A program made the position numbers and the translations under genes. A stretch of 64,000 nt of DNA from a virus, in IMG/VR virus record IMGVR_UViG_3300032893_000036, positions 3,221-67,220 of that record. The stretch is one strand, 5' to 3'. The notes under the pieces were generated by a model. The model worked only from the letters and a program-made list of their open reading frames with translations. It was not told the origin of the DNA and made no database searches. Shown here piece after piece: positions 20,043-52,341 of the stretch (within the stretch, counting starts at the first letter, position 1; every line of letters begins with the position of its first letter).

Positions 20043-20342
20043 CTTGATGGCGTTCTGAGCGCGGGCAAGGTCTCCGGCTAAAGCAGCCTCGCAATGCCCC
20101 TTCTGCAACCCGTTCAGCATACGGTGCAGTAATGCCCAGAAGGCCGGCGGGTTCCCCTTTCGCCAATAAAGCCCGCACTGGCTTGAGATGGTGATGTCGA
20201 AGTCCCGACTCCACAGGACGGAGACGAAGTAGTCGAAGGCGAGCAGGGTTTTGCCCACATAGGTCTTGCCGGCAAGCCTGTTGATAATTACTAGAATGGC
20301 CAACACCATGAGGATGACGAAGATGGCCAGGGCAATGATCAT
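20031..20342 (-). CDS. membrane-anchored lysis-region protein
   Basis: N-terminal TM helix; D.TISS..G...HC motif seen in small phage proteins near lysis genes. Confidence 0.55.
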   Translation of the reverse strand: MIIALAIFVILMVLAILVIINRLAGKTYVGKTLLAFDYFVSVLWSRDFDITISSQCGLYWRKGNPPAFWALLHRMLNGLQKGHCEAALAGDLARAQNAIKLLS

Positions 20343-20842
20343 AGCTGCGGGGTTATTTCGGCGATGAGGGCTTGGAGCCGGTTGGCGTTTCGCCGACACT
20401 CGTCGCGGGCGGCGACAAGAAGTTCTCCAGCGCGGTCAATGCCTGGGTCTCCGGGGGAAGTAACAGTTGCGGGTCTACTACCGGTTTTCGGCATTCCACC
20501 ATTTGCGGCGGTTCGGGCTGCTTCGGCTGCGAGCAGCTGCTCGAGGCGATGCAGACGCACAATAGTAGCGTCGCGGTCGGCAGCATTTTGGGCGTTTTGG
20601 TTAGCAAGGGTCACCATAGCGGCTTGGTTGTTACGGGTCGTCTCCTGCGCCTGCGCCAGCTGCGCTAGGAGCGTCTTTCGCACTGTTTCCTCTGCTTGGG
20701 TGCGGGCCAGTGCATCCGAGGTCTGCAGAGCCTGATAGCGCGCCTGCCAGGGGTTCAGATGGTAGCCGGCCCAACCTCCCAATCCCAGGAGGACAATCGC
20801 GCCGGCGACCCAGGGAGCGAACTTCAATAGCAAAGCGGTCAC
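20339..20842 (-). CDS. Rz-like inner-membrane spanin
   Basis: N-terminal TM helix plus Ala/Gln coiled coil; C-terminal EC...L.ALI; downstream of the endolysin. Confidence 0.8.
   Translation of the reverse strand: MTALLLKFAPWVAGAIVLLGLGGWAGYHLNPWQARYQALQTSDALARTQAEETVRKTLLAQLAQAQETTRNNQAAMVTLANQNAQNAADRDATIVRLHRLEQLLAAEAARTAANGGMPKTGSRPATVTSPGDPGIDRAGELLVAARDECRRNANRLQALIAEITPQL
20353..20586 (-). CDS. Rz1-like outer-membrane lipoprotein spanin embedded in Rz
   Basis: Signal peptide ending IASSS-C and Pro-rich body, in an alternative frame inside Rz. Confidence 0.75.
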   Translation of the reverse strand: MLPTATLLLCVCIASSSCSQPKQPEPPQMVECRKPVVDPQLLLPPETQALTALENFLSPPATSVGETPTGSKPSSPK

Positions 20843-21072
20843 TTCCCCACCTTGCTGGCGACGTATTGATGTCGCAGCCAGGATGCGAGAAACAATACTG
20901 AAATGGTTCCTAGCACAATTTGATGCCCATATTTAGGAAACAATTCCTCGATGGGCTGTTTGATTGGATCAATGTTGAACGTTTCTAGCCCTGACCAAAT
21001 GAAACCAGTCCCAGCGAAAACACGGCCGCATTTGTTCTTCAGCCACGTCCAAAAAGAACGTAGTGCATTCAT
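20839..21072 (-). CDS. putative holin
   Basis: Two hydrophobic segments; between endolysin and Rz. Confidence 0.5.
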   Translation of the reverse strand: MNALRSFWTWLKNKCGRVFAGTGFIWSGLETFNIDPIKQPIEELFPKYGHQIVLGTISVLFLASWLRHQYVASKVGK

Positions 21073-21524
21073 GCGAGAGATCCCCCGGACTGTGTGTATG
21101 CCGATTGGAGTGATGCCAAGCTGTTCTGGTGTTGACCGTAGTCATTACCCGGCAGGCTGGCCCAGATGCTCGTGCACTTTGAGACCGCCGACGACAGTCG
21201 GCCCGCAATCACGTCATCCAACGCATGACGCTCGCGAATCATCTGAGTAGCGATGGCGTCCTGTGATGCCGGGCTAAAGTCAGGCAAATGCAGACTGGCC
21301 TTGTAGGCATCGTAGAAGCGTTCAAGGATCTGGTATCGACCCGCTGCAGTACTGGTCAGCGTTGGCGAGAGTCGTACTTCAATACGTGGATGATCCAAAT
21401 AACTGGTAAACAAATGCGGATGCGCTGGAGTGCTTCCGACGATACAGTTATAGCCGTGATCGCCAATCAACTCAGTGCCCTCGCTCATTGCTACCATGGT
21501 CAAAAAGGCGTTCAGGTTACTCAT
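21069..21524 (-). CDS. lambda R-type endolysin (lytic transglycosylase)
   Basis: NLNAFL.MVA.SEGT, STAAGRYQIL, DFSPASQD, WASLPG..YGQH. Confidence 0.95.
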   Translation of the reverse strand: MSNLNAFLTMVAMSEGTELIGDHGYNCIVGSTPAHPHLFTSYLDHPRIEVRLSPTLTSTAAGRYQILERFYDAYKASLHLPDFSPASQDAIATQMIRERHALDDVIAGRLSSAVSKCTSIWASLPGNDYGQHQNSLASLQSAYTQSGGSLA

Positions 21525-21765
21525 TTGACGCTCTCCGGGTAACCAACTGCCACACGATATAGATGATCGCGGAAGCCCCGAGCGCCCAGGCCACTGAGCG
21601 CTCGAGATATCGCAGGCGCCGTTCATGGTCACTGGTGATCTTCTCCACCAGTGCTTCTACCCGCGCCAAGTTGCTATCACTGCGTTCGATAAGTCCTGCT
21701 ATGCGCTCGTTGATCACGGATTGCTCAGCGCCGTTGTCAATCAAGCGATGCAGTTCCTTCGTCAC
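21517..21765 (-). CDS. coiled-coil protein with C-terminal TM (holin/antiholin candidate)
   Basis: DHERRLRYLER followed by a TM helix. Confidence 0.55.
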   Translation of the reverse strand: MTKELHRLIDNGAEQSVINERIAGLIERSDSNLARVEALVEKITSDHERRLRYLERSVAWALGASAIIYIVWQLVTRRASNE

Positions 21766-21766
21766 A

Positions 21767-21961
21767 TCAGCAGTGCTTGGCCACGTAGTCAAGCATATGG
21801 GCCATATAGCGCACATCACCTTCATCACACGCCGCAGCGCCTTTGGCTTGGATCGCCTGACAGCGTGACTGGTCGCTCGCATCCATTGAGTTCATGAAAC
21901 TTGGATCGGTCACCGCAGTGATCAGCACCTTGGCTCGATTAATGATTATCCCGCCTCCCAT
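21767..21961 (-). CDS. hypothetical protein
   Basis: GAGGT SD; collinear. Confidence 0.45.
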   Translation of the reverse strand: MGGGIIINRAKVLITAVTDPSFMNSMDASDQSRCQAIQAKGAAACDEGDVRYMAHMLDYVAKHC

Positions 21962-21964
21962 ACA

Positions 21965-22261
21965 TCACCTCTTACATTGTTGCTGTAGAAGGGCATGATC
22001 CAAGTCAACTTCACGTTGAAGCTGTCTGAATTCGCCCATCTGAAATTGGTTCAGGTCGTAGTCGTGCAGCCACTTGCGAGTGCCTACATCTCGAATAGTC
22101 CATAGACAAAATACGTTGACCATGATGCTGATTGCGAGTATCACGCTCGTCAGCCACCCTTTGACTTTTTCGCCCGTTATCGTCGCCTGCGCCACGGCTC
22201 CTCCAGAATGCGCCGTGATAGGCTGGTTGGTTGAAAAGTCCTCAATGTGACCGGAGTTCAC
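21965..22261 (-). CDS. single-TM hypothetical protein
   Basis: GTGA overlap with the upstream stop; TM WLTSVILAISIMVNVFCLW. Confidence 0.55.
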   Translation of the reverse strand: MNSGHIEDFSTNQPITAHSGGAVAQATITGEKVKGWLTSVILAISIMVNVFCLWTIRDVGTRKWLHDYDLNQFQMGEFRQLQREVDLDHALLQQQCKR

Positions 22262-22629
22262 TGACCTCGGTACCTCGGTTCTACAATCTTTTCCACATGA
22301 TCCATCTGATATTGCAGCCCTTCCACTTTCGATTCCAGAGAGGATAGTTTCCCGAACATCGCTACTCCTCCAATGATCGCTGCAGCCGTCAGACTCGCCA
22401 GCACCGTCAGCATCCAGCCCTGCCATGAACTCTTTCCTCCACCACCCTCGTTGTAATCGCCACGGATCTCTACCGTCGCACGACGGACTGCGCGTTTGAC
22501 CACGCGCTCTAAAATCTCCTCTGCTCCCGATAGATCCTCTGGAGCATCCGGACTCGGGCCTCGGTGCCCCATCAGTAAACGGTCGAGGAGGCCAATTGTG
22601 CATTCATCCTCTTCAAATGTGGCCGCCAT
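22258..22629 (-). CDS. single-TM coiled-coil protein
   Basis: AAGGA SD; TM helix then heptad repeat. Confidence 0.6.
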   Translation of the reverse strand: MAATFEEDECTIGLLDRLLMGHRGPSPDAPEDLSGAEEILERVVKRAVRRATVEIRGDYNEGGGGKSSWQGWMLTVLASLTAAAIIGGVAMFGKLSSLESKVEGLQYQMDHVEKIVEPRYRGQ

Positions 22630-22657
22630 CTCACTGTTCCTTATGCCGCCTTTGTTG

Positions 22658-24043
22658 TCATCGTCCGATCGCGAACCAATTACTCACGCTACCGGATGGC
22701 CCAGAATCTACCGTAATCACACATCCAGTCTGAGTGATACTGCTCGCAAAGTTAGACCCATCCGCCGCCTGTCCGTTGACCGCAACACTTCGATTGCTGC
22801 ACGGAAAGACGCCAAAGCATGCCGTCGGAAATGGCTTGGGGAACGTGATAGGAAAATCAACCGGAACGCCGGCCTGCGGAGTTGGGACGTTACCCCATTG
22901 CAGAATAGTGCCGCCAGGTAACGTTTCGGTGTTAGGCGTTATGCCGCCGCCCCATGAAGTTGGCTGCCCTATGCCATTCGATACTTCAACTTGCCCTTTC
23001 AGGCCATATCCACCACGGCTGATTGATGGGAAGGCAGCCAGATCGTATAGGAACTTAGAGCCGTCAAAAAACTCGTCGACAACGAGCACAGTCCCCGTCC
23101 CCGTACCAAACTGGTGACGGATGACCGCAGTTCCCGTCGCCCCCGGCGGAATATTGGCGCTCAGAATCACGCCAATGCCGCATTTCATTCCGACCACACC
23201 GCTCGAGACAACTGCATTGCCCGCCTGCGCGCTCGGATTAGTGCCTGTCGCGTTACCACCTTGGAGCGTGGCATCGCCAGCAATGGCATTAACCGATGTG
23301 CCGCCTTGCGCCTTATAGGCGCCTCCCGGTCCATTCAGTGATGCACCCGCGAAGTCCAGCAAGTCGCCGCCAGCATCAAGTCCCGGATTCCCAGGTGTAC
23401 TATCGGCATCTCCCGCCGAACGGATGACCGTGATGCCTTTCTGACCTGTAACCTGAGCATCGGTGATGTGGATCACTTGGCTTTTGGTAGCACCGCCAGC
23501 CAAAACACCCGAGCTCGGAATGCCCGACGCATTCGGCAGCAAAAAGCCCCACTGGAAATCGCCATAGCCAGCCGGATAGCCGTTTGGGCCTGCCACCTGT
23601 ACGGATCCTGACTCAAACGTCGGTTCGTAGGTGCCGCCCTGAGTCTGGGAATTGGCCAGCGCCACCGTCGCGCCATCGCTGACGATGAGCGTTCGTGTTC
23701 CAGGTGGCAATACAAGCGAGTTCCCAGCTGCGATTGAAAAAGAGAGAGTAAAGGCACCGGTTGCAGCGTTTGAAATAGTCCACAATCCACCGACGCCAAT
23801 CGGTATCTGGTAGGCGATATTCGCGCCAAGCGTTCCGTTGAACTCTATGTTTGGGGGCCGGTACTGAGTTAGGGTGAGCGTAGTTGTTGGGGTGACAACA
23901 CCTGTAACGGATATTGAAGTCGTGCCACCTAATGCCGCATCTATTGCTGAGAAATTCGCATTTACAGGGGTCGCCCAAGCGTTAACGTAGTCGCCTGATG
24001 CTGGCTCCTCAAGTCCTTTGTTGACTGAAAATGTACTCGTCAC
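22658..24043 (-). CDS. tail fibre / receptor-binding protein
   Basis: N-terminal virion anchor (NKGLE.PA.GD...W..PVN.N...ID), Gly-rich middle, C-terminal LPGGTILQWG...FP.PFPTAC fibre-tip domain. Confidence 0.8.
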   Translation of the reverse strand: MTSTFSVNKGLEEPASGDYVNAWATPVNANFSAIDAALGGTTSISVTGVVTPTTTLTLTQYRPPNIEFNGTLGANIAYQIPIGVGGLWTISNAATGAFTLSFSIAAGNSLVLPPGTRTLIVSDGATVALANSQTQGGTYEPTFESGSVQVAGPNGYPAGYGDFQWGFLLPNASGIPSSGVLAGGATKSQVIHITDAQVTGQKGITVIRSAGDADSTPGNPGLDAGGDLLDFAGASLNGPGGAYKAQGGTSVNAIAGDATLQGGNATGTNPSAQAGNAVVSSGVVGMKCGIGVILSANIPPGATGTAVIRHQFGTGTGTVLVVDEFFDGSKFLYDLAAFPSISRGGYGLKGQVEVSNGIGQPTSWGGGITPNTETLPGGTILQWGNVPTPQAGVPVDFPITFPKPFPTACFGVFPCSNRSVAVNGQAADGSNFASSITQTGCVITVDSGPSGSVSNWFAIGR

Positions 24044-26118
24044 AGCGTCTGACTCCTACCCGCGATATCTAACGCGCGAATGATCGACGCATCGGGCGCC
24101 TTGAGCAACGGTTCGGTGCCCTCATCGTTCATCTTCTTGGCCGCCTTATAGCGTTGCATGAGTCGGTTGAGTAGCGCATCGTGATCGACCTTGCCGCCAG
24201 AGGCGCGGGCAATAGGCGGCGGTTCCGGAACCGGTTTGGTCAATCCCGCGCCAGGAGCAAGTGAGCGCTTAGCAAAGCTATTTTCTGCAATGTTCTTTAG
24301 GACAGGTACTCCCATGCCAAAAGTCTTTGCATTGATAGCGGCCTCACCGAGTTCTCGCGCCGCACCAGTCGCCGCGTTGCGAATCACTCCCGATTTGCTG
24401 TAATTGACGAAGTTTCCTGGTGGTGCGACCTTTGCGTTATGCACTACGCGACCCAATGATTCGAGCGATTCCTGAGTTTCAGGACTCAGTAACAGGTCCA
24501 ACTTCGGATCGTACTTGGCCAACGCGCCGTTGTAACCGGATGGCGTAATCTTTCCTGTATTGCCAACGGCCGCCTTGCGTACTGCACTCAGTGTATGCGC
24601 CGCGACAGCCTGCTGCGCATCAGCATCAAATTTTTCCATGACGCGCTCAACATTTGCGCGCGGCGCCTGCAACACGTACTTATCTAGGAACTTGTCTGCA
24701 AGCGCCGATGGCTTACCGCGCTTGACCCCATTCAACGATACATCGTCAACAGCTGCTTGATATGCAGGATCAGCATCTAGCGCATCAAATCTAGCCTTCG
24801 CGGCCGCACGCGCTTGGTCGAATAACGCTTTCGCCTCAGCGCTTTCCGTTCCAACCGGCTGGACCTTCTGGAGTGCCTCTTGAACTTTGCCTACGGCGAA
24901 TGCGGCATTGCCATCGCCAGCCGCGCGGGCCTTGGCGATCTCGTTGCCAAGCTGCGTGCTGTAGGCTTGGAAGTCGTCCAATGACATCTTTCCGCCAGCC
25001 GATTCCACATCGTCCAATATCCCTTTTGCCGTACTCGGCAGATAGCGGAATTTGCTTTGCGGTTTCAATGCCGCGTTGGCATCTTGCACGAATGTAGAGC
25101 CATCCATCTGCAAGTCACCCGTGGCGGATGCCTTACGAGCAGCAGCATACTTCGCATCGATGCCTGCTTTAATCGGCTCATCGTATGCCTTCAATGCATC
25201 GACCGCGATCTGGCCATTCTCAACTGGATCATTCTGCACGTGCGATGGCGCAGCTTCGCGACGGATGTTGTCCAGTGCATCGACCATCTGACCTTCTTGG
25301 TCATTTATGCGTTTGACGATCGCGCCGTGCGTACTATTCTGCTCGTTTGAAAATTGCACCGGATCTCGCGTTGCTTGACCTTCGGTCAATTGGATGCCGT
25401 GCTTGTCAGCTTCTAAATGATTTTCTAGCGCTGTCTGATTCACTGATCCTTTTCTGGCAGCATCGCGATATGCCTGCTGCAACGGCGCACTCGCTTCTTC
25501 AATATCAGGAGCTGTTCGAGCTGCACCTAGCGATTGGGGTGAATCAAGTGTAGATGCATCGCGTCCTTTTTCCACCAATCCGCGATATACATCAGCGACC
25601 TTCCCAGCCGATCCCGTCACGGCCTGTCGTGCTTCTGATCCGCCCTTGGTCAAAGCCATCGTTGCTAAATCGCCAACCACGTCCGCCGTGCGCTCGTTGG
25701 TCGCGCCAGCAATCAAATCATGCGCCTTTTTGGTCGCCCAAGTGACCGGTGTCATAACCGTGTTCAGCGCGTTCATGGCGGTCTTGCCGCCCTCAGTTTG
25801 CGCGTGATAATTCAACACTGGGTCGGTCTGGATTTCTTTCTCTAACGCCGCACGCCCCTCTTTTCCAGGCAGGATGTCATTGACGGCGTGTGTCACGGCT
25901 TTAAGACCACTGGAGCCAACTGCCAAACCTGCATCGCCAAGTCCCTTGATGGCGTTGAACCAAGTGTCGGCCTCGGATTCGGGAGTGCCTGCGTTTTTTG
26001 GCACTGGCAGCGGCTTGTCAGCTGCGAAGAATGCCGTGCGTGCATCTATGGGTGCTGCATCATCGTCAGCTGCACCGGCAGCGCCCTGTGCGAAAAAATC
26101 TGTGCGTGGATCGCTCAT
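24040..26118 (-). CDS. internal virion / DNA ejection protein
   Basis: Large Ala-rich helical protein in the ejection-protein position; RASGGKV near the C-terminus. Confidence 0.7.
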   Translation of the reverse strand: MSDPRTDFFAQGAAGAADDDAAPIDARTAFFAADKPLPVPKNAGTPESEADTWFNAIKGLGDAGLAVGSSGLKAVTHAVNDILPGKEGRAALEKEIQTDPVLNYHAQTEGGKTAMNALNTVMTPVTWATKKAHDLIAGATNERTADVVGDLATMALTKGGSEARQAVTGSAGKVADVYRGLVEKGRDASTLDSPQSLGAARTAPDIEEASAPLQQAYRDAARKGSVNQTALENHLEADKHGIQLTEGQATRDPVQFSNEQNSTHGAIVKRINDQEGQMVDALDNIRREAAPSHVQNDPVENGQIAVDALKAYDEPIKAGIDAKYAAARKASATGDLQMDGSTFVQDANAALKPQSKFRYLPSTAKGILDDVESAGGKMSLDDFQAYSTQLGNEIAKARAAGDGNAAFAVGKVQEALQKVQPVGTESAEAKALFDQARAAAKARFDALDADPAYQAAVDDVSLNGVKRGKPSALADKFLDKYVLQAPRANVERVMEKFDADAQQAVAAHTLSAVRKAAVGNTGKITPSGYNGALAKYDPKLDLLLSPETQESLESLGRVVHNAKVAPPGNFVNYSKSGVIRNAATGAARELGEAAINAKTFGMGVPVLKNIAENSFAKRSLAPGAGLTKPVPEPPPIARASGGKVDHDALLNRLMQRYKAAKKMNDEGTEPLLKAPDASIIRALDIAGRSQTL

Positions 26119-29100
26119 GGCGGAATCTGCCCATTCTCAAGCGCGCGCAGATTCGCACTCTTCAGCGCAAGTATCTTCATACCCTTCGGGCCGAGACGTG
26201 CGCGAAGCGCGTTCAATTCCGTCGTATCCCCGCGTCTAATCGCATCATCCGCGCGGTACACGTCAGGGTCGAAATTTTTCGCCCATGCAGATCGGAATGC
26301 TTGGTACTTCGCGAGATTCGGCGCCTGACCAGTCCCCACTGCCTTGTCGAGTCCTTCGCGATACGCCATCACGCCGCTGTTCAGCGCGTCAGCATATTTC
26401 ACTTTTTCCTGGAGTGCCTGCGGGGTGTACTCAGTGGTGCCCGTGGCAGTCTGCGATGCTGCCAGTCCCGCATTGGTGTGCGGAACTCCCATTGCCGCTG
26501 CTTGTGATGCGGCCTGCCGATCCAGGTAGGCGTTGATTTCCTGATAAGTGGACCCCGAAGGCATGCCAAGTACGGCCGCAATCTTTTGCCCTGTCTGTGT
26601 CCAAGGGCCAGTTTTGGTTTCTGCCGACAACCGTAGCAACTGCTGATTGATGTTGCGGTTATTGGGCGCCGCATCACCAGCTTCGCGTATGTGCGCGACC
26701 GCTTCCTGATCGAGTGCCTGCTGTCTGGCCGCGACCGGGGATTGAGATGCGCCGATGATCCCGGCGCCCGTGGTAGGCGCGGGCGGGCTGGGCGGGGGCG
26801 TTGCGATTGGAGGTGCAGCGCGCGTCGTGGCCATACCGCCAGATGGAGTAGCCGTTGAATTGACCATAAGGCTTCGCGCATACGCGGCTGGGCTGGCGGC
26901 ACCATGTGCGCGCCATGCCTCCATGTTCGTAACTTGACCGGTGTTTGGATCGCGCACATCCGTAGGCTCACGCGCGAGTCTCATGAACTCAGATTCTTGA
27001 GTAGGTGTAAACCCCTGCTGAGCGATCGTCCCAATCTCTGGTTGTTTCGTGCGAGCATTCTTGACGATGCCGCCTTCGATCCCTGTCTCGTCCCCAGTCC
27101 ACTGTCGCAGCGCGTTATAATGCGCGAGCGCGACCTGCTTCTCCGCGGGCGTTTTCGCTGTATTGTATTGCTGATATCGCGCATCAGCCATCAACTGAGC
27201 CTGATTGCGCGAGTTCTGCAAATCGCGCTCTACACGGGTCTGATAATCGGTATCAGCCTGCTTTTGGAACATGTCGCCGCCGATGGCCCAATCCTTCTTG
27301 ATTGCGGCGTCTTTGGCGGCTTGCTCCTCGGGTGTACGGGCTTTGTTGACGAAAAATTGCTTGCGATATTGTGATTCGAGTCCGCCAGCCGTCTGCGCAG
27401 CATCGTCGGTCGTAGCTGTTTGCGGGAGTGACTGTCGCGGCACCGTAGTCGGCGCGAGCGCATCCTTCGCGACCCCGAGTTTCAACGCCGCAAGCTGATT
27501 CGCGATCTCAATCTCTTTCGCTTTCTGTGTAATCTCCTCGGTCCCCGCTTGCGACCGCCGGGTATTCAGGTACGAGTCAGCCCCAGCACCCAGACCGGCC
27601 GCCAGTGCGACTCCGGGATGCACCGTCTTCGCGGTCCCCATCGCCGCAAGTCCCGACAGGATCGGCAGGATGTTCTCGGACTTCTGCCACCAGTGCGCGC
27701 CATTGGGCGGGGCGACACCAGTATCAGAAGTCGGAGGATCGTTTGGCGTGTCATCTGGGACATCGCCGCCGTCGTCATACTTGCGCCGCCCCGCGAGTCC
27801 GCCGCGCGCGAGCGCTTGGTTGCTGAAGATCTCTCCAGTATTGGTCATGGCCTGATCAGGCTCGCCGCCCTTCATGAGCGTCTGCAGCCCCGTAGGCCTC
27901 TTAACCAGTGGCCCCGGACTCTGCAGTTTCTCGTTGCTGACCTCTTCATCTGGAATGTCCAACTGCCCATTCGGATCGCTATACGGCGAGCCACCTGCGG
28001 CTAATCCGATTCGGCCGCCACGTTTGGCCGCTAGCGCAGCTACAGCGACGTCTGCCGCCGCGTATTCGGCCGCCAAGGCTGCCGCCTCAGTTGCCGCGGC
28101 ATCGGCTGCAGCGCCCGCAGCTGCGCTCCCAGCTGCCCCCGCCGCAGCTCCGCCGGCTGCGCCAGCGGCAGCTCCGGCCCCGGCATCCGCTGCTGCGCCC
28201 GCGCCCGCTCCAGCAGCCGCGTCTGCAGCTCCCGTTCCCGCTGCGGTATCCGCCGCGCCGAGTCCCGCGTCAAATGTCGTTGTGGTGCCTGCGTCCGCTG
28301 CCGGCTCTCCGAAATACGTTGTCGTCCCGAGACCCGATTGCGAAGGTGCGGCCGTAGCTGTCTCGGGCGTTCCAGCGCCATAGCTTACCGCCCCGCTGGG
28401 CTGAACTCCGGCAGGCTGCAGTCCGGTCGATGTCGCCGGATGCGCAGCTACCGGTCGGTTAAAGTACTTGTATCCCTGATAGGCGTCCTTCCCAAGCCCT
28501 TCAATCGTATTCACCTTGCTCGAGCCAGACGGTCCCGGCTGCGGCGTACCCTGTGCGACGGCGAGCTGGTGACTCGTGCCCTGCGAGGGAATATTGCGCT
28601 GCCCCCCATTCTCATGCGGTGCGTACATCCGTTGCTGCGCCGCCAATACCGCATCCAATCCTCCGGTATCTCCGCCATCTGCGTATCGGCGCCGCGGAAA
28701 TGGCACCACGCCGCCTTCGTAGAAATGCGCGCGATTCGCTGCCTCCTCGGTCGCTCGGCCGTAGTCGACGTACTTGAATCCGCCTGCGAGTCCCACCGCC
28801 TCGGGATGCTTCTTTTCGACCTGCTGGGCTGACAGTCCGATCTGGTCTCGGCTGTCGCCCCTCATCTTGTATCGATAGATCGGTTGCCCGTCGAACGTCT
28901 TGCCGATTGGCTCCATGTCCTCCTTCAGCCGCTCGTCGCTGAAGAACCCGCCTGGCTGCGTCGTGGTCGTCGTTGATCCCGACAGCGCGCCGGTCCCTTC
29001 CGCGATGTTCGCCAAGAACTGCGCGACCTGGAACGGATAGGACTGCTGCTGCAAGAATTGCTGGTATTGCGCGGTGTCCTGCGCCTGCTGCGTCTGCTGC

Positions 29101-29829: not shown

Positions 29830-30354
29830 TTAGTTACTTCCTTCGTTGGTTACATTCCCCGGAAAGCAACCTGTCTTTCTGCCGTGAATCCAGTATTTGC
29901 CAGATGCTGGACCCAAAACGCGCTCGTACAATTTACATTTGGCATCGGTCTGAATTGAGGACAGGACTCCGATCAGCAACGGGAGTCCTAGCTTCTCAGC
30001 AGATGATTTGCTGAACTCGATCAATTTGTGGGCGCGCCCACCGCGTGCGTTGCGATAGTCTGGATGGACGAATAATACGAGTTCTTCCAAGCATGTCTCG
30101 TCCGAATAGAACAGCTTGCCGATCTGCAGGACTACGATGCCCTCGATCTTGCCGCCGCGTGGGCCGATGCAGCCGATGAGTCCGGTTTGAAGATTGAGCT
30201 TCGGCCAGATGGTGCGCACAAGCAATTCTGTCTCGAACTTGAGCAACCCGTTTTCCGTCGCTGCCATCATGGCGAGCTGCATGATCTCGTCCATGTCCGC
30301 CGTGGTGCCGAGGCGGATTTTTAGGTCGTCGTAGATGGAGAGGGTTAGGCTCAT
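29830..30354 (-). CDS. GNAT acetyltransferase
   Basis: IRLGT.ADM...LFVHPDYR..RGG.A.KL...KLYER; position analogous to T7 gp13 / P22 gp14. Confidence 0.8.
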   Translation of the reverse strand: MSLTLSIYDDLKIRLGTTADMDEIMQLAMMAATENGLLKFETELLVRTIWPKLNLQTGLIGCIGPRGGKIEGIVVLQIGKLFYSDETCLEELVLFVHPDYRNARGGRAHKLIEFSKSSAEKLGLPLLIGVLSSIQTDAKCKLYERVLGPASGKYWIHGRKTGCFPGNVTNEGSN

Positions 30355-30659
30355 TGCGTTAGCCAATCAGCGGCTTGGTGAGCCATCTGCAGCAATTCGG
30401 GATGGATATAGATCCCGAATCTGTCTGGGCCAACATCGGTGACCCGAATCTTTGTCTGATATTCGGCAGGAATACTTTCAGTCATGTGACCTTGCATCAA
30501 TACGATCTGATCGGCCCAATCGCATAACATCGTTAAGGTCTTTTTGGACACCCTCAGTCGACCCACGGCGATAGACTCATGTCCACGAAGATCGTGCAGG
30601 ACGTAGGCCAGCGCGTGAGATCGCACGTTCCCGCCATCGCAGACGCATAGATATTTCAC
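30351..30659 (-). CDS. low-molecular-weight protein tyrosine phosphatase-like protein
   Basis: N-terminal LCVCDGGNVRS is a CX5RS P-loop; L..WAD.I..M is also typical of the family. Confidence 0.72.
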   Translation of the reverse strand: MKYLCVCDGGNVRSHALAYVLHDLRGHESIAVGRLRVSKKTLTMLCDWADQIVLMQGHMTESIPAEYQTKIRVTDVGPDRFGIYIHPELLQMAHQAADWLTQ

Positions 30660-30663
30660 TGCG

Positions 30664-31623
30664 TCAGTCCTTCCTCGGCGGCGCAAGCTTCTCCAACTTC
30701 CCAATGTGCTCCTTGCGGATCTTGAGCACGAAGGAGTCCAGCACGCGGTGGCCTCGATCCATGTCGCCCGCGCCAATTTGTTCAACGTGTCTAGGACTTA
30801 TCACCCACTCACCTCCCGCGGCGACAATCGGCACACCCGAGGCCTCACCACCGTGCGCTTTTCGAGCGCGTAGTTTTTCGAGCGCCTTACGGACTCCCGG
30901 ATGCAAGGGGAGTTTTTCCGCTTCAGATGGCTTGATCCAGACCGCTCCATCGTGCTCCTCGTTCAAGGTGGGCTTAAACTTGTCGGTAGAATGAGCTACG
31001 AAGGTTGTGAAATCAACGCCTTGACCTTTGCTGTGCATGAACGGGGATAGACCCCCCTCGTGCGAGTAGCCGGCTTCCTCTTCGGTCTCGCGCCGGGCCG
31101 CCTGCTCAGGCGTCTCGCCCTTTTCGATGCCGCCCGCGGGGAGCGCCCACTCGCCGACGTGGTCCTTCCCCCGGCGACGCAGCAGCAAGACTTCTTTCTC
31201 GGGGGATACGAAAAGGATGCCGGCTGCGTGGTGGACCTTGCCACCGGCCGCGCGGGGCAGTGGCTCGCCATAAGGTCCGCCCTTCTGACCGTAAGGGCGG
31301 TTGCTCGCGCCATACGGCTCACCACCGAACATGCGGCGGAGCACCTTGAACCCCGCCAACGTGTTGTTCTCGCCCAAATGAGAAACGCAGTCCGCTGGAA
31401 GAACGTAGGACCCACTTTCCACTGTAATTGGTAGGTGATCCGTCCGTCCCGCGACCGAACTGTGAATCGGGCCAGAGTGGAACTTAGTGACGGTCTGGCC
31501 GCCCTCGGCGCGTTTGCGGCGGGCGACGTCGAGAGCGATAGCAACGGCTTGCCGATGAGGGTGATTCTCGCTCTCAACCTCAATGTTGTGACCGATGTTG
31601 CGTTTGCCGGGGAGGAGGGGCAC
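30664..31623 (-). CDS. multi-module virion-associated protein containing a Nudix hydrolase
   Basis: Nudix box GGIEKGETPEQAARRETEEEAG; flanked by two copies of a P.....G.(Y/W)V.....V..(L/I)G module; N-terminal MPL..G...I..NI...QAVAIAL module. Confidence 0.82.
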   Translation of the reverse strand: MPLLPGKRNIGHNIEVESENHPHRQAVAIALDVARRKRAEGGQTVTKFHSGPIHSSVAGRTDHLPITVESGSYVLPADCVSHLGENNTLAGFKVLRRMFGGEPYGASNRPYGQKGGPYGEPLPRAAGGKVHHAAGILFVSPEKEVLLLRRRGKDHVGEWALPAGGIEKGETPEQAARRETEEEAGYSHEGGLSPFMHSKGQGVDFTTFVAHSTDKFKPTLNEEHDGAVWIKPSEAEKLPLHPGVRKALEKLRARKAHGGEASGVPIVAAGGEWVISPRHVEQIGAGDMDRGHRVLDSFVLKIRKEHIGKLEKLAPPRKD

Positions 31624-31776: not shown

Positions 31777-32141
31777 GAGAAACTCCCGCTAACAGTCTGC
31801 CCGCTCCCCGGCGCAATCGTGATCCCGAACGAGCACGGCAAGTTCACCACATATACCCCCACCGTCTCCGGAATCACATACAGCGGCTTGGTCGTGTTGC
31901 CCGTCGCCGCCGCGTCATACACCATGCCGGTAGCGGACCCTGCCACAATGACGCTGATTCGTGCGATGCGACCTGCGGATGTCTTCACGGTCGTCGCCGC
32001 TGTCACCCCTGCGAAGTTTTGCGCGCCTTCGACGTTGAGATACGTCTGCGCAAGCGAGTTGACCGCAGTCGCTAAATTCTTCGCGACTGTTAGGATGTCG
32101 GATAGGGAGGCGCCGCCTTGCTGTTGTGGAGTGGTGACCAT
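31773..32141 (-). CDS. virion structural protein
   Basis: ASLSDILT..KN; beta-rich C-terminus. Confidence 0.6.
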   Translation of the reverse strand: MVTTPQQQGGASLSDILTVAKNLATAVNSLAQTYLNVEGAQNFAGVTAATTVKTSAGRIARISVIVAGSATGMVYDAAATGNTTKPLYVIPETVGVYVVNLPCSFGITIAPGSGQTVSGSFS

Positions 32142-34240
32142 CAAAATTTGCCATCCGACGCGTATCGATACCTGATGGCTCCGATTCTCCAAAATGATCC
32201 CAGATCGCTGCTAGAAATCCTGATCGATACCAACCGTCCGCGCAGCCGCGTGTTGAAATACTGAGTTGCTTGGGTCACGGAGTATGGGCCGTAAACTTTG
32301 GGCGTATCGCCCGCATAATCGGCTACAAAAAACGTGATGTTCACTGTAGCCGTCTGCGCCTGCGATAATTTACCCCACTTCATATCCGGCCACACCAAAT
32401 CGATGAACGTCTTGAGGTCGCCTTCACTCAATGTGAAGTATCCACTCTGAAAATACGGCTGCATCGCCTGCAAGTCCGCGTCGTTCGAGGTTTCGTGCTG
32501 ATACAGCAGTCCCGTCACCGGATCAGCACCAATCGGTGGACCCAACACAGACTGATCGACCCAAGCCGTGCGCCCCAACGTTCCATAGTCCCAGATGTTG
32601 AGCGGTGCGGTGTACTTCACGTAGGAGTCCACTTCGCCCGTGCCATTCGCTGACGGGTAGTACCACGTGATCTCACCGAAGAGAGAATTGACCGCAACTC
32701 GGATCTTGTACAGGTTGGCCGTGACCGGATGCAGATTCTGAAACACCTGATCCCACACCGAGCAATACAGCGGCTGCACGCCGGCCGAGCTCAACGTGAA
32801 AAACTGCGAGGGACCCATCCAGTAGCCGATGCCGCCCATAAATGCCGCGGCCTTTCGCGCGATCAATCCGCAGCCCGAGCCGATCTCGTTGAACGAGTAG
32901 ACGTACGGAGGTCCGATGTACTGCATCGACCACGCGTCGATGTCAGTCCAGAGAATCGCCTGCTGCGGACCTTGCAGCCCGCCGACGATCTTGGACCCCT
33001 TCGGAATGCGGTATGAGCCCGCCTGGTTGGTCGGGAGCGCGATCCACTGATTGAAATTGTTGACATCACACCAATTCACCAACAGTGGATCTTGGATGCC
33101 GGTCTGAGTACTGCCCCAAGCGACAATTTGCCGCTGCGGCATAGCGACGAACGCACCGTCATTGACCGGCGGCGCGGCCGTGATGATCGTGGCGCCGGTG
33201 ACGCTCTCTTCCCACTGGTACAGCGGTTGGAATGGGACCGATCCAGGTGTCAGCGTCTGGTCCGCGCAGGCGATCAGGATCTCGCCCCAGTTATCCAGCG
33301 TCCAGTCGTTCGCCGGAATGAACGTGCCCGATGCCGGTGAGACCGCGTTGCCGGTGCCGTAGCCGCCCGCACCATAGGCCCCAGCGCCGTAGCCGATACC
33401 GCCCGGAATGGTGCCGTAGCCGAAGGAATAGATGAAGTGGGCGTTACCCCCGTTTAGCGTGCCGGAGGTCGTTTCGTTCGCGGGATTGCTGCCGATGATC
33501 GTGAAGTTGCTGCCATCAACTAGCGACTGCACGACGTAATTGCCGTAGAGCTGGATGCCCCCGACAGTCGTCGCCACCAGCACGGGGAAAGTCTCGCCCA
33601 CCTGATAGGTGTAGTTCGGCAACGTGACGGTCACCGTGAGTGACCCGCTGACGGTGTTGAATACCGGCAACACGGGCGAACTTGAGTTGCTTGTCGCAGG
33701 CAATGGGTTGCCCAGTTTGTCGGTCGCCTGCACCGTGTAGGCCGTGTTGCTCAGCAGTCCGCACTGATAGAGCCCGAACAGCACCACGCCGCCGATGCTG
33801 ATTTGCGTCGCGATGTAGACCGAATCGTAGCCGGTGATGCCTTGAGTCGTGGTGTCTGTGATCGTGACGGTGGCGCTGGTCGAGGTCGTGGACACGACGG
33901 GCGCGATGTCTTCGGATGACTGTTGCGGCGTGATGTACTGCAGGATGCCGTTCGTGATCACGCCTAGGAGCGCGTAGCCTTGGGCTGCGATGGTCTGCGT
34001 ACCGACAGCCAAGTGAGTGTTGAGATTCAGGTCCTCCCAGGCCCACAGCGCTCGAGCCGTGGCGGGCATAGGTTGGCCAAAATATCTAGACCATCCTCCG
34101 ATCTTCTGGACAAGGCCGACGCCGTTGCGATCCGGCATGAATCGAACCAACTGCGACTGCGAAATGCCCGAGTTTTCGTTGAGTGCAGGAGTCTCTTGCG
34201 TGTCAACTCCCGGGACTAATCTGAGGGTGGCGTGCGGCAT
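32141..34240 (-). CDS. tail nozzle / stabilisation protein (P22 gp10, T7 gp12-like)
   Basis: Beta-propeller-like; WTLDNWGE, CGLI, EITWYYPS, WDYGTL.RTAW, R.RGR...I.S..LG..WR.G. Confidence 0.8.
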   Translation of the reverse strand: MPHATLRLVPGVDTQETPALNENSGISQSQLVRFMPDRNGVGLVQKIGGWSRYFGQPMPATARALWAWEDLNLNTHLAVGTQTIAAQGYALLGVITNGILQYITPQQSSEDIAPVVSTTSTSATVTITDTTTQGITGYDSVYIATQISIGGVVLFGLYQCGLLSNTAYTVQATDKLGNPLPATSNSSSPVLPVFNTVSGSLTVTVTLPNYTYQVGETFPVLVATTVGGIQLYGNYVVQSLVDGSNFTIIGSNPANETTSGTLNGGNAHFIYSFGYGTIPGGIGYGAGAYGAGGYGTGNAVSPASGTFIPANDWTLDNWGEILIACADQTLTPGSVPFQPLYQWEESVTGATIITAAPPVNDGAFVAMPQRQIVAWGSTQTGIQDPLLVNWCDVNNFNQWIALPTNQAGSYRIPKGSKIVGGLQGPQQAILWTDIDAWSMQYIGPPYVYSFNEIGSGCGLIARKAAAFMGGIGYWMGPSQFFTLSSAGVQPLYCSVWDQVFQNLHPVTANLYKIRVAVNSLFGEITWYYPSANGTGEVDSYVKYTAPLNIWDYGTLGRTAWVDQSVLGPPIGADPVTGLLYQHETSNDADLQAMQPYFQSGYFTLSEGDLKTFIDLVWPDMKWGKLSQAQTATVNITFFVADYAGDTPKVYGPYSVTQATQYFNTRLRGRLVSIRISSSDLGSFWRIGAIRYRYASDGKF

Positions 34241-49249: not shown

Positions 49250-49834
49250 TTACGAGGCCAGGTTGATACCTTGAGCGTAAGTGACCGTCAGCGTGCCGAC
49301 GCCACTTCCCGTGTTGGTGGATAGTACGACGACTTGGATGTCCTGCGTACCGACGTTGTCCCAGTTGCCGATTTGGGTCGCGCCCGTTCCGGGGACGATG
49401 CTCACCTGACCCAAGGCACCCGAGGTCACGACCGCATTCGCCGCCGTCAGTGCGGTTGCGGATGCGCCCGTGCCAAGGCCCAGAGTCGTCGCGCCACCCG
49501 TCCACGCGGTCGTCACCATCAGTTTGATCGAGTGAATCTGGCTCTGCGCCGGAATCACAATCGGGCAGGCGAACTGCCCGGCGGTACCCGTGTTGGTCGC
49601 CTGCGTGATCACGCACGACTGCGACATCACGACATAGCCCTGATTGCAGGTGCCGACCGTGCCGCCCACGCCCGCAAGGTTGCCAGTGCCATCTGAAGCG
49701 AGCACCGAGCCCACAATCAGCGGGCCTTGAAACTCGGTACCAGGAAGCGCCGGGCTACCGTTCGGCTGTGTCAGCGCGCCCGGCTGTGTATCAGGTAGCG
49801 TCTGGCCGCTGGTGGGGGTGATGTACTGGGTCAT
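49250..49834 (-). CDS. capsid decoration / head fibre protein
   Basis: T.F.GP..G motif; jelly-roll-like C-terminus (IPAQSQI..I...VTTAW); follows the capsid gene. Confidence 0.65.
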   Translation of the reverse strand: MTQYITPTSGQTLPDTQPGALTQPNGSPALPGTEFQGPLIVGSVLASDGTGNLAGVGGTVGTCNQGYVVMSQSCVITQATNTGTAGQFACPIVIPAQSQIHSIKLMVTTAWTGGATTLGLGTGASATALTAANAVVTSGALGQVSIVPGTGATQIGNWDNVGTQDIQVVVLSTNTGSGVGTLTVTYAQGINLAS

Positions 49835-50562
49835 TTCACTTCCTCGGTCGTGACAATCGTCAGGGCCGGAGTAGTCGGCTCACGACCGGAATGCTTGTCG
49901 AGGTACTTCACGGCGGCGAGCAGGATATCTCGATTATCCTTTGCTTTGCCCAACATCTGATTGCATTCCGAGCAGAGCAACGCGCGTACTTTACCCGTTT
50001 CATGGTCGTGATCGACTGAAAGTGCTTTCACTTTGCCGCCACGAGTATGGGTCTCTTCGCCGTTGCATATTGCGCATTTTCCGCTCTGAGCAATCAGCAT
50101 CTGGCCGTACTCTGCCAGCGAAAGATTGAACTTGCTGCGTAGATGGGCGTCCTTCCAGTCCATACCCTGAGCAGCCTGATATTCGCGATTGTAATCAGCG
50201 CGCCCCTCCGGCGTGCTCAGATCATGCGGAGTCGTTATTGAATTAGACTGCCGCAGATTCTGAATCCGCAGATTGAGTGGATCGCCGTCCTCGAAATAAA
50301 TCTTCCCTATAGGCCATTCGCCGTAATGGAGTGCCCAAGCGACTCGTTGAGCTGGCATCGACGCACCAAGCACGCGGACATACCTGTATGCGCCCTTGCT
50401 GCCATCTGAGAGCGTTCGCGTGGACTTAGTGCAGCCCGCTTCGGAGCCAACACGTACCTTAGATGCGCTCTTGACGCGCCAGAAAATCTTACCGGTCTCA
50501 GGGTCGTAAACGAAAATCTCGGCCAGCTTCTCAACCGGCACTGCGTTTTGATCGAAAGGCAT
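49831..50562 (-). CDS. homing endonuclease (degenerate HNH N-terminus plus endonuclease VII-like domain)
   Basis: YDPETG..W...G.EAG, RVAWALHYG.WP; Q.GKCAIC...LSVDHDHETGKVRALLCSECN..LG..KDN. Confidence 0.85.
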   Translation of the reverse strand: MPFDQNAVPVEKLAEIFVYDPETGKIFWRVKSASKVRVGSEAGCTKSTRTLSDGSKGAYRYVRVLGASMPAQRVAWALHYGEWPIGKIYFEDGDPLNLRIQNLRQSNSITTPHDLSTPEGRADYNREYQAAQGMDWKDAHLRSKFNLSLAEYGQMLIAQSGKCAICNGEETHTRGGKVKALSVDHDHETGKVRALLCSECNQMLGKAKDNRDILLAAVKYLDKHSGREPTTPALTIVTTEEVK

Positions 50563-50663
50563 ATAAGTCTCCAAGTTGTTGTTGGAGACTATAGTATATC
50601 CTTTAGATAAAACGGCGGAAATCATTTTTTGACAGATAACTTTTGGAGATTTATGAAAGATAA

Positions 50664-51578
50664 TCAGCTAGTTGGGAACGAGCCGTAGAGCGATCTCCAA
50701 TTGAAGTACGAAAGGCTATAGCGCTCGTATCCCTTGACTAAAAGGTTATCAGTAACGAAGTCCACCTGCATGTCGCTCTCGTACGGAATGCGCTCCATGT
50801 AGGCGAGTCCGGGGATGTTGGTGAGCCCGAACCACGCGAACTGCGAGGTCAGGAAGTCCATCACCATGTAGCCTTCTGGGATGCCGCCAGCCGTCGACAG
50901 GATCGCGTTGACGTCGTTGTCGGCGGTGCCAGGCCGCAGTTCGGTCTTGGTCAGTCGAATTGCGACCGGCTCTAACTGCGGGGGTACGATCAGCTTGCGG
51001 AAGCGGGCGAACATCTTCAGTCCCGCCTGATCCTTGAAGTTCGTGCGGACCGACACCTGCGCGTTCAGCAGCGTCGCTTCGTTCAAGTCCACCTGCGTGG
51101 TCGGCGTGTTTGCAATCGTCGCGCCGTCGATCGGGTGGGTCGTCGCGCACAGCGCAACACCGTCACCGTTCACGTTCGCGTTGTAGGTCGTCGCGGTGTT
51201 GAGGACGTTCGCGCCGTAGATCTCTTTCGCTTGGTGGAACGACTCCATCAGCCCCAAGTTGGACGGGTGGAACTGGGTCTTGTACAGGTTATCGTCGATC
51301 GCTTTGCGCGTGATCGCGTAGCCCAAGCCGATCTCGATGTGCTCCTGGTTGTAGACGTATCGCTCGCCGGCATTGTTATCGAATGCCGTCTGGCCGCCTT
51401 CACTCTTCAGCTGCGCGAGAGGCAAGTAGCGCATCTCGGCCGTGCGCTCAAGCGCCAGCTTTGAGGTGTACTTGGTGAAGACTTTGTCATATTGAGACGG
51501 GATCTGTTCATATTTTCCGGTGACACCCCGGAGCCCCGGCAGCAACAGGTCTTTGATGGCTGAAAGATTAATTGCCAC
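50664..51578 (-). CDS. major capsid protein
   Basis: MAINLSAIKDLLLPGL, KSEG, LGYAITR.AIDDNLY, DGVAL....HP, LIVPPQL, ADNDVNA, DF.T.N...K..ERYS...WR..YGS. Confidence 0.92.
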   Translation of the reverse strand: MAINLSAIKDLLLPGLRGVTGKYEQIPSQYDKVFTKYTSKLALERTAEMRYLPLAQLKSEGGQTAFDNNAGERYVYNQEHIEIGLGYAITRKAIDDNLYKTQFHPSNLGLMESFHQAKEIYGANVLNTATTYNANVNGDGVALCATTHPIDGATIANTPTTQVDLNEATLLNAQVSVRTNFKDQAGLKMFARFRKLIVPPQLEPVAIRLTKTELRPGTADNDVNAILSTAGGIPEGYMVMDFLTSQFAWFGLTNIPGLAYMERIPYESDMQVDFVTDNLLVKGYERYSLSYFNWRSLYGSFPTS

Positions 51579-51584
51579 TTCTCG

Positions 51585-52340
51585 TTACTCCTGCGCCGCG
51601 GCTATGACGCTCTTCCAAATTCGCCCGTTGCGAATCATGGATATGAGCGGAACTCCTACGCCGTATTGGCGCGAGAGTTGACTGTGAGGAATGGATGCGT
51701 CGGCGCTCTTGATTGCCATGACCTGATTCCGTGTGAGTTTCGCTCTGCCGTCTGCTTTTTCGACGCGCTTTTCCGGCATCGGGACATGTGTCCACGTCTT
51801 GCCGGTGATGATCTGGTGAATGTTCGTTCGATCGATTCCGTACTTCTTGCTGAGATCTTTGAGGCTCTGCGCAGAATTGCGGATATCGACCACGTCGGCA
51901 TCAGTAAGTTTGGCTAGGTCATTCAACGTGCCGGGCCTCGGCGCCGGCAGTTTGAATCGGCCTCGCTTGATGCAGTCCGCCATGTTTTCTTTACGAGTGC
52001 CAGCCCGAAGATGATTCGGATTGACGCACGCCGGAGTGTCGCAAGAATGAAGTACGTCGAGGCCATCAGGAATAGGACCAATGAACAATTTGTGACTCAA
52101 TCGGTGAGCGATGTCTCCGCGACCGAGCCCCTTGCGGCCAGCGATCGACTTGAAATAGCCGTAACCGCTGTTGCTTAGAGTCCCAGTCCAAATCCAACAT
52201 CCTGTGTCAGATTTACGGCAACGGCTGAAAAATACAGCCAATGTTGCTTCTCGATCTGTGACAACCCGAAATGGAATTCCTTCGACGGCGTCAAATTCGC
52301 GCATGGCTTCTTCAACTGTGTTGAAACAGGAAGAAATCAT
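51585..52340 (-). CDS. HNH homing endonuclease with repeated C-terminal HTH modules
   Basis: CWIWTG...GYG, AHRLS...F.GPIPDGLDVLHSCD.P.CVNP.HL..GT.KEN; two AKLT..V..I...LS..YG repeats. Confidence 0.9.
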   Translation of the reverse strand: MISSCFNTVEEAMREFDAVEGIPFRVVTDREATLAVFFSRCRKSDTGCWIWTGTLSNSGYGYFKSIAGRKGLGRGDIAHRLSHKLFIGPIPDGLDVLHSCDTPACVNPNHLRAGTRKENMADCIKRGRFKLPAPRPGTLNDLAKLTDADVVDIRNSAQSLKDLSKKYGIDRTNIHQIITGKTWTHVPMPEKRVEKADGRAKLTRNQVMAIKSADASIPHSQLSRQYGVGVPLISMIRNGRIWKSVIAAAQE

Positions 52341-52341
52341 A

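Follow-up and report, generated by a model that had tools for sequence, protein, structure and literature searches.

The DNA analysed here is a stretch of 64,000 nucleotides (the window), positions 3,221 to 67,220 of the IMG/VR virus record IMGVR_UViG_3300032893_000036. The record comprises 67,220 bp and is rated 100% complete by CheckV, and the window covers nearly all of it. The gene under study is an open reading frame (ORF) of 319 amino acids (aa) on the minus strand (30664..31623, GTG start), which encodes a candidate effector carrier and is referred to below as the carrier. Homologues likewise begin with MPL, and the assigned start is therefore considered correct. From the N- to the C-terminus, the translated protein comprises an N-terminal helix region, the peptide RAEGG, a first hairpin module, PRAAGG, a Nudix domain, RKAHGG and a second hairpin module. 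The three glycine-containing peptides are termed seams, and the coordinates of all parts are collected in table 1.

The first-pass annotation, made from the letters of the window alone, had divided the protein into four modules bordered by GG motifs, and this division stands. The seams lie at aa 38-42, 123-128 and 254-259, and the pattern [RKYF]A.GG occurs three times in the protein against 0.10 expected, a count that was reached in none of 500 shuffled sequences. An AlphaFold2 (AF2) model, built on an alignment of 120 relatives (mean per-residue confidence, pLDDT, 78), consists of a confident Nudix fold (pLDDT about 90 or higher), a strand-strand-helix-helix unit that is present twice (aa 64-99 and 263-312) and a pair of N-terminal helices. 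All three seams sit in stretches of pLDDT below 50 (aa 38-45, 119-127 and 256-260), while the domains are confidently folded.

The Nudix domain had been described as running from one GG to the next, and the Pfam family NUDIX (PF00293) was indeed matched at aa 131-250, in the space between seams 2 and 3 (E 3e-22, 79.4 bits against a cut-off of 21.1). The rest of the protein gave no Pfam match even at E 0.1. The Nudix box is intact (G164...E170...R178-E-T-E-E-E-A-G-Y186), with the catalytic Glu present, and a regular expression for the box matched the window protein and 77 of 155 relatives. Foldseek aligned the domain to many solved Nudix enzymes with a probability of 1.00 and TM-scores (target) of 0.65-0.80; RenU, Ap4A and Ap6A hydrolases, RppH and MutT were found at E 1e-10 to 1e-8, and the closest solved relatives were RenU, NUDT18, Ndx1, RppH and MutT. 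Box, profile and alpha/beta/alpha fold agree that the domain belongs to the Nudix hydrolase superfamily. PHROG matches of this region fall in families labelled portal protein and head maturation protease (for instance phrog_15528, 'portal protein', E 2.8e-17), and a gene of Bcep781, Bcep43 and BcepNY3 annotated as portal or NUDIX is 43% identical to the window Nudix.

The two hairpin modules flank this domain. Module 1 contains strands 64-69 and 73-75 and helices 77-83 and 88-99 in the AF2 model, and module 2 contains strands 263-268 and 273-275 and helices 277-283 and 288-312. That the second is a copy of the first had been proposed from the letters, and the comparison bears it out: a profile of module 2 detected module 1 (best E 2.5e-07 among 43 sequences), and hhalign aligned the two over 35 columns with a probability of 83% (E 8.6e-06). 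On this profile evidence the modules are homologous. Columns G59, R60, T61 and D62 of module 1 are invariant in 120 sequences.

Module 2 also acts as the constant end of a far larger group of proteins. A phmmer search with aa 252-319 against 1.84 billion representatives returned 1417 clusters (50% identity) at E<=1e-3, 380 of them at E<=1e-10, and details were taken from the best 150 of the 1417. In all 150 the match ended no more than 7 residues from the C-terminus, in proteins of 54 to 1405 aa (17 below 130 aa, 26 of 130-215, 67 of 216-400, 29 of 401-800 and 11 above 800). Hereafter this element is called the anchor, and the two modules together the scaffold.

The scaffold itself gave no PHROG, Pfam, PDB-sequence or PDB-fold match, T7 gp13-16 and P22 gp7/16/20 included. 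A BFVD fold search returned uncharacterised proteins of uncultured phages only, and all ESM Atlas neighbours were unnamed viral clusters, the nearest named one being crAss cargo protein 1 (0.77, under the lead threshold). The repeated module had been likened to the C-termini of tape-measure proteins (TMPs), and this likeness was not recovered. A tblastn search of 50,697 phage records with the scaffold matched five, none of them a TMP; BFVD fold matches to TMPs appeared only at E 1.9-3.4; and no TMP Pfam family occurred among 107 anchor-only representatives, a scope that leaves 1267 weaker anchor clusters outside. No account of the scaffold, or of GG seams in internal proteins of phages, was found in the literature search, whose scope excluded the supplements of PMC5512222 and PMC9503650, which might list the domain.

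Among annotated genomes, the closest to the window is that of MW202675.1, a circular metagenomic phage of 61 kb with the same gene order, whose major capsid protein is 81% and portal 57% identical to those of the window. Its syntenic homologue of the carrier has 193 aa, aligns with both flanks and contains no Nudix; its single AAGG seam runs straight into hairpin 2, whereas the window protein has a seam on each side of the Nudix. This alignment marks the Nudix as inserted at a seam. With aa 1-128 as the query, 509 relatives measuring 175-559 aa were found. Among the 120 of them listed, 44 measured 181-237 aa, 68 measured 292-352 aa and 8 measured 454-541 aa; the short forms were nearly all insert-free and the middle group consisted mostly of Nudix carriers. 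The same search returned 35 relatives of 560-2000 aa. A further 161 shorter relatives were found, and 77 of the 120 listed keep both hairpin modules without the N-terminal cap.

When 156 proteins were mapped onto a profile of the insert-free form, 110 of them showed a total of 115 large insertions or N-side extensions, which joined the scaffold either at model positions 22-51 (34 cases, slot A) or at positions 106-133 (81 cases, slot B), and 0 of the 115 joined it elsewhere. The expectation that the Nudix would be absent or exchanged at the GG borders in homologues is thus borne out by the MW202675.1 form and by the restriction of all insertions to two slots. A GG was present within an 18-residue context of the restart in 79 of the 115; in many of the 36 misses the context stopped just short, and this count was not used.

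Slot B holds a Nudix alone, ART-PolyVal plus Nudix, DUF6098 plus Nudix, another domain of no known family plus Nudix, or GP88-like domains. Slot A or the N side holds InPase, inserts of 41, 99 and 220 aa without known identity, zeta toxin or long multi-domain strings; relatives P0016, P0079, P0080 (InPase) and P0112 are examples of slot A. Relatives on the same scaffold bear an ADP-ribosyltransferase (ART) with Nudix, DUF6098 with Nudix, zeta toxin with Nudix or several ARTs, and the window protein bears one enzyme with non-enzymatic modules. Among 43 longer forms, Pfam detected NUDIX (9), ART-PolyVal (6), GP88 (6), InPase (2), DUF6098 (2), Zeta_toxin (1), DUF7178 (1) and SLT (1). In the 107 anchor-only representatives, the majority of which matched no Pfam family, it detected InPase (4), NUDIX (4), Peptidase_M15_4 (4), ART-PolyVal (3), GNAT (3) and ADPrib_exo_Tox (2), with single cases of NAD-ligase adenylation domain, lysozymes, CHAP, Hydrolase_2 and LPD23. 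On a FastTree tree of 232 cores the slot-B state changed at least 14 times, the N-side cargo at least 16 times and the presence of Nudix about 5 times, counts that are rough owing to the short alignment.

The location of the gene points to a virion function, as proposed in the first-pass annotation. The carrier gene lies in a block between nozzle/tube genes and tail-fibre genes. In 81 loci (80 from IMG/VR and MW202675.1) a nozzle-like protein precedes the carrier in 79, a GNAT gene follows just downstream in 79, and the giant ejection protein is present in 76; the same order is found in prophages of cultured Rhizobium strains, namely Rhizobium lusitanum P1-7 and Rhizobium sp. BK316. Homologues of the nozzle-like protein are annotated as stabilization, tail or 'needle head' proteins, and more distant relatives occur in podophages of Pelagibacter, Roseobacter, Sinorhizobium and Ochrobactrum. 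The MW202675.1 homologue of the ejection protein is annotated as 'internal virion protein D'. Moreover, the window portal is of the SU10 type, and the head module, which includes a coiled-coil scaffolding-like protein, looks P22-like or T7-like.

Table 1. Parts of the carrier and other features of the window mentioned in the text (positions are those of the window).
Feature	Coordinates	Strand	Remarks
Nozzle / 'stabilization protein'-like virion protein, 699 aa, upstream	32141..34240	-	phrog_3287 virion structural protein, E 1e-57
N-terminal helical cap, aa 1-37 (MPL...QAVAIAL...AR)	31513..31623	-	optional, mobile; helices 12-19, 23-39 in AF2 model
Seam A, aa 38-42 (RAEGG)	31498..31512	-	insertion slot A; pLDDT <50
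Hairpin module 1, aa 43-122	31258..31497	-	HSGPIHSSVAGRTDHLP...GSYVLPAD, two helices, PYG-rich disordered tail
Seam B, left copy, aa 123-128 (PRAAGG)	31240..31257	-	insertion slot B; pLDDT <50
Cargo: minimal MutT-like Nudix hydrolase domain, aa 129-253	30865..31239	-	Pfam NUDIX; Nudix box G164-Y186
Seam B, right copy, aa 254-259 (RKAHGG)	30847..30864	-	closes last Nudix helix
Hairpin module 2, aa 260-319 (VPIVAAGGEWV...GH..LD.FV...LAPPRKD)	30667..30846	-	universal C-terminal anchor
Small ORF next to the carrier	30351-30659	-	starts 5 nt past carrier stop
GNAT acetyltransferase	29830..30366	-	weak Pfam and PHROG acetyltransferase matches
Ejection / internal virion protein, 1237 aa	26115..29828	-	phrog_4287 'DNA ejection protein', E 1.4e-14, aa 1-364
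Repeat protein, 747 aa	45925-48168	-	
HNH homing endonuclease	49831-50625	-	
Major capsid protein	50664-51578		
Endonuclease VII-type homing endonuclease	51585-52451	-	
Gly/Arg/Pro-rich protein, 276 aa	56144-56974	-	adjoins portal gene
Portal, longest ORF, 946 aa	57249-60089	-	listed GTG start

We favour, with a probability of about 0.68, a reading in which the product of the ORF is an internal virion protein of a podophage-like virus and serves as an effector carrier whose cargo stays tethered. According to this model, the C-terminal anchor and its homologous partner module, each a hairpin plus helix, presumably fix the protein inside the particle, for which the head, named in the first-pass annotation, would be one candidate site, and presumably send it out along with the ejection proteins. 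The optional cap and one or more enzyme domains would be strung on the anchor at two flexible [KR]-A-x-G-G seams, which are taken as uncleaved hinges that tolerate in-frame exchange of domains. In the phage studied here, seam B would hold a small MutT-like Nudix pyrophosphohydrolase. At infection the whole string would be expected to enter the cell before or with the DNA, and the Nudix would then hydrolyse a host nucleoside-diphosphate-X compound ahead of any phage gene expression. The occurrence of peptidoglycan hydrolases and of families defined in polyvalent proteins among the cargo fits delivery into the host, and the cell-wall hydrolases in particular suggest that the carrier leaves the particle at the envelope.

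It is very unlikely that the carrier is not packaged at all. It would then be a late cytoplasmic protein, e.g. an assembly factor for ejection proteins, with a Nudix domain that performs housekeeping in replication, such as nucleotide-pool sanitation or RNA 5'-end processing. The nearest Nudix relatives are of housekeeping types (MutT, RppH, Ap4A/Ap6A hydrolases), and gene position by itself is no proof of a structural role. However, such a role leaves unexplained why peptidoglycan hydrolases, ADP-ribosyltransferases, zeta toxin, InPase and LPD23 occupy the same slots, why the anchor is always C-terminal on proteins of up to 1405 aa, and why cargo domains of the long carriers recur in three giant proteins whose genes adjoin the MW202675.1 portal gene.

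The seams themselves are conserved. In the left copy of seam B, G128 does not vary among 120 sequences, and A125 and G127 reach a conservation of at least 90%. Among the Nudix carriers, A.GG marks the left Nudix border in 73 of 77 and [KR][AT].GG the right border in 73 of 76, the right-border GG lying 6 aa ahead of the PIVAAGGE core in 72 of 76. In the 150 diverse anchor representatives, a GG was found upstream of hairpin 2 in 126 of 130, preceded by Ala at -4 in 108 and by K, F, R or M at -5 in 103 of these 126, which identifies AxGG as the conserved N-terminal edge of the hairpin element. Every inserted cassette brings or keeps a further copy of AxGG. The DNA coding of the three seams of the carrier has nothing in common beyond codon constraint, and no scar of recent recombination is thus apparent in this genome.

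Several results weigh against the tethered carrier as outlined above. The [KFR]-A-x-G-G motif is conserved over clusters of no more than 50% identity, which exceeds the need of a passive hinge and points to recognition by something. In the 276-aa protein adjoining the portal gene, basic-x-x-G-G occurs 9 times against 1.7 expected (reached in 0 of 1000 shuffles), a hint that the two proteins share a role of the motif in processing or docking. For the large multi-domain forms, BLAST-boundary ends lay near a seam in 14 of 55 cases, at best a modest enrichment (random mean 6.6, maximum 17 in 300 draws), and in the same crude test starts were not enriched near seams (7 of 62 against 8.8 at random); consequently it is not claimed that all domain borders in the giant forms are seams. 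As there were only about five Nudix changes on the tree, the uniform Nudix borders mostly reflect one inherited event, not 77 independent ones, and the independent support for the slots is the non-Nudix cargo types. The scaffold-only model had 0 of 75 matches to solved structures (PDB) at E<=0.001, and the anchor showed no match to characterised ejection proteins, with PHROGs and Pfam blank over it. Finally, the 20 NCBIfam models that matched the Nudix all scored far under their equivalog cut-offs (best 37.5 bits against 156), so that no Nudix subfamily (ADP-ribose pyrophosphatase, NudC NAD diphosphatase, MutT, RppH or Ap4A hydrolase) can be assigned; the nucleotide immune signals suggested in the first-pass annotation are candidate targets at most.

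The conserved seams could also be sites of cleavage, in line with the polyprotein-like gene of the first-pass annotation. During assembly, a phage or host protease would then cut the carrier, a small polyprotein, at [KR]AxGG, either behind the GG or inside it, and its cargo would be free and injected separately. We regard this as unlikely, though not negligible. The motif has the usual look of a protease site, with a conserved non-prime side (basic or aromatic residue at -5, Ala at -4, GG at -2/-1) and a variable residue after the GG, and all seams are exposed and disordered in the AF2 model. The 739-aa protein of MW202675.1 contains [HY]A.GG seams, the last of which, in its ART module, is kept even three residues before the stop, and the motif is 5-fold enriched in the Gly/Arg-rich 276-aa protein. 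Head proteases of the T4 and phiKZ type cut internal proteins at short motifs, and the adenovirus protease cuts core proteins at xxGG. On the other hand, the P22-like or T7-like look of the head module argues against cleavage, as phages of these types are not known to use a protease in assembly. Several seams have a Pro after the GG, which many GG-specific proteases reject, and some compact members (P0269, P0273) have no seam B altogether. Pfam searches of 65 further window ORFs revealed no peptidase, and PHROGs plus Pfam searches of the structural genes revealed none but the Peptidase_S74 intramolecular chaperone domain of the ejection protein; these searches covered recognisable families in 64.0 of 67.2 kb, with divergent or host proteases outside their reach. 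Neither the SprT-like gene of MW202675.1 nor its three giant genes beside the portal gene had a homologue in the window. The lack of a recognised peptidase family in the genome favours uncleaved seams.

A bolder form of this proposal appears improbable. Here [KR]-A-x-G-G would be the maturation code of an unrecognised protease, and the carrier, the portal-adjacent giants and the 276-aa protein would all be cut after GG in the procapsid, which would set free enzymes and small basic peptides for later injection. Phages would then have a counterpart of the xxGG processing by which adenovirus-type core proteins mature, and this in a podophage lineage otherwise not known to use a protease in assembly. 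The cleavage consensus of adenovirus is (M/I/L)xGG. As in adenovirus maturation (parts of PMC4246237), xxGG punctuates presumptive internal virion proteins that include a very basic one, to which the 276-aa protein may be compared. In adenovirus, however, cleavage has been demonstrated and the protease is known, while no protease of the CE clan or any other was found in the window.

As a third possibility, the seams could be short docking signals, with [KR]AxGG(x)V binding the capsid interior, the scaffold or the portal, so that each module would bear its own encapsidation tag. Loose parallels are the cargo-loading peptides of encapsulins and the capsid-targeting sequence of T4. Such a function, which we consider quite improbable, would account for a conservation stronger than hinges need, for the closure of each cargo cassette by its own copy of the motif, even at the extreme C-terminus of a protein, and for the many copies in the portal-adjacent 276-aa protein. 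Seam copies are also found before the last 53 aa of a 692-aa protein and after the first 51 aa of a 684-aa protein. Yet neither the 1237-aa ejection protein nor the 692-aa protein is enriched in the motif, and the hairpin anchor, always C-terminal, is a simpler packaging determinant.

The favoured model, an uncleaved carrier held by its anchor, shares features with several known systems. In T4, the internal proteins and Alt bear an N-terminal capsid-targeting sequence of about 10 aa, which is cut at Leu/Ile-x-Glu by the prohead protease. The carrier likewise combines a short conserved peptide with exchangeable cargo, including ADP-ribosyltransferase, and would likewise be packaged and injected; unlike in T4, what stays constant is a pair of C-terminal domains spanning about 125-150 aa, for which no protease is known. 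In polymorphic toxins (VENN of CdiA, Rhs), a short conserved peptide marks the swap point of variable enzymatic modules, as it does in the carrier. These are secreted bacterial toxins with variable C-terminal tips, whereas the carrier varies internally or towards its N-terminus and is constant at its C-terminus. T7 gp16 carries a cell-wall hydrolase domain, and such domains occur in some members of the carrier family. Like the podovirus ejection proteins (T7 gp14-16, P22 gp7/20/16; parts of PMC8954989), the carrier is encoded between nozzle and tail-fibre genes and beside the giant ejection protein. Unlike them, it has no detectable sequence or fold similarity to the group; these proteins build a trans-envelope channel, and nothing suggests the same for the carrier anchor.

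Virion-packaged Nudix and ART effectors as a general idea are already published (parts of PMC5512222 and PMC9503650). Polyvalent proteins of phages and conjugative elements combine disparate enzymatic domains in one polypeptide and are predicted to be injected with the DNA (Iyer et al. 2017, parts of PMC5512222), and the carrier is best read as a compact form of this strategy, on a vehicle that was not found described. The trio of InPase, NUDIX and GNAT, linked in polyvalent proteins (parts of PMC5512222), is also met in the carrier locus. ART-PolyVal, InPase and LPD23 occur in carrier relatives and not in the window protein itself, and the phage gene context of 76-79 of 81 loci points to delivery with the DNA. 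Unlike polyvalent proteins, which have 2-15 domains, the window protein is a single enzyme on a 190-aa scaffold, and its two-hairpin scaffold matches no Pfam family, LPD families included. The main text of PMC5512222 contains neither 'linker' nor 'glycine', and two fixed slots with [KR]AxGG seams are not described there, supplements being outside this scope. Processing by zincin-like metallopeptidases (MPTases) is predicted for polyvalent proteins (parts of PMC5512222), whereas none was found in the window. Nudix and ART domains that are joined to MuF, portal or head protease (e.g. Burkholderia phage Bcep781/Bcep43 gp17) are predicted to be injected against NAD- or ADP-ribose-derived molecules, mainly in myoviruses (Iyer et al. 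2022, parts of PMC9503650). The window Nudix resembles these in being joined to a predicted virion protein and in its relation to the Bcep781/Bcep43 gene; it differs in its vehicle, a small C-terminal two-hairpin anchor beside ejection-protein genes, and in the podophage-type structural module of its genome.

To the known vehicles for injected enzymes, i.e. MuF, portal, protease and giant polyvalent proteins, the carrier would add a compact one. Its anchor is uncharacterised and very widespread, with two defined slots, and it can therefore serve as a search handle, with the domains between seams as candidate effectors of the first minutes of infection; most of this cargo belongs to no known family. 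The carrier may also offer a natural way to load podophage particles with a protein of choice, and its conserved AxGG seam poses a sharp question, namely whether it serves as hinge, docking signal or cleavage site.

The N-terminal cap also has a distribution of its own. It was matched by phrog_2423, a 52-aa PHROG family (aa 1-40, E 3.6e-07). Elsewhere the cap (MPLLKGKKNIGHNIEVE...AIAL) is free-standing, in proteins of 42-50 aa with a Lys-rich tail, and unrelated proteins of 202-697 aa that lack the hairpin anchor also begin with it. Judged by these occurrences, the cap is a mobile module in its own right. Pfam DUF6496 was matched in one of the 107 anchor-derived representatives.

The GNAT protein encoded downstream could be an effector or a modifier of internal proteins. 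Three of the 107 representatives carry a GNAT as cargo joined to the anchor; a complex prediction of carrier and GNAT (score 0.00, mark 0.32) was not used as evidence either way. The small ORF between the two genes encodes a product with a C-x5-R-S motif near its N-terminus that resembles low-molecular-weight phosphatase (LMWPc) clusters (ESM Atlas score 0.92). Pfam, PHROGs and NCBIfam were blank for it and a homologue was present in 0 of the 81 related loci; it may represent an additional effector gene that became inserted between carrier and GNAT.

In the 1237-aa ejection protein the Peptidase_S74 domain lies at aa 297-345, far from the C-terminus, and is followed by an RRRYADGG seam and long Ala/Gly-rich low-complexity sequence. 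This internal position suggests self-cleavage of the N-terminal third of the protein. The 276-aa protein, which contains a CGCSKCGGG stretch and is homologous to an MW202675.1 gene mislabelled 'yenB', could be an internal DNA-associated or processed protein. In MW202675.1, three large genes (20316-27813; 739, 847 and 898 aa) directly follow the portal gene, and their products look like polyvalent effectors with GNAT, M15 peptidase, ART and InPase-like parts and seams.

Three further observations concern the remainder of the window. The major capsid gene is flanked by genes of HNH and endonuclease VII-type homing endonucleases. The 747-aa protein, without a family match, consists mostly of repeats that are about 20-25 aa long and follow the type FSNSNGVSFGLNGSTITAS; it is probably a fibre or surface protein. 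In the longest portal ORF, the first approximately 150 residues are Arg/Gly-rich and unaligned with the MW202675.1 portal; similarity begins near 59624, and the true start therefore probably lies downstream of the listed GTG.

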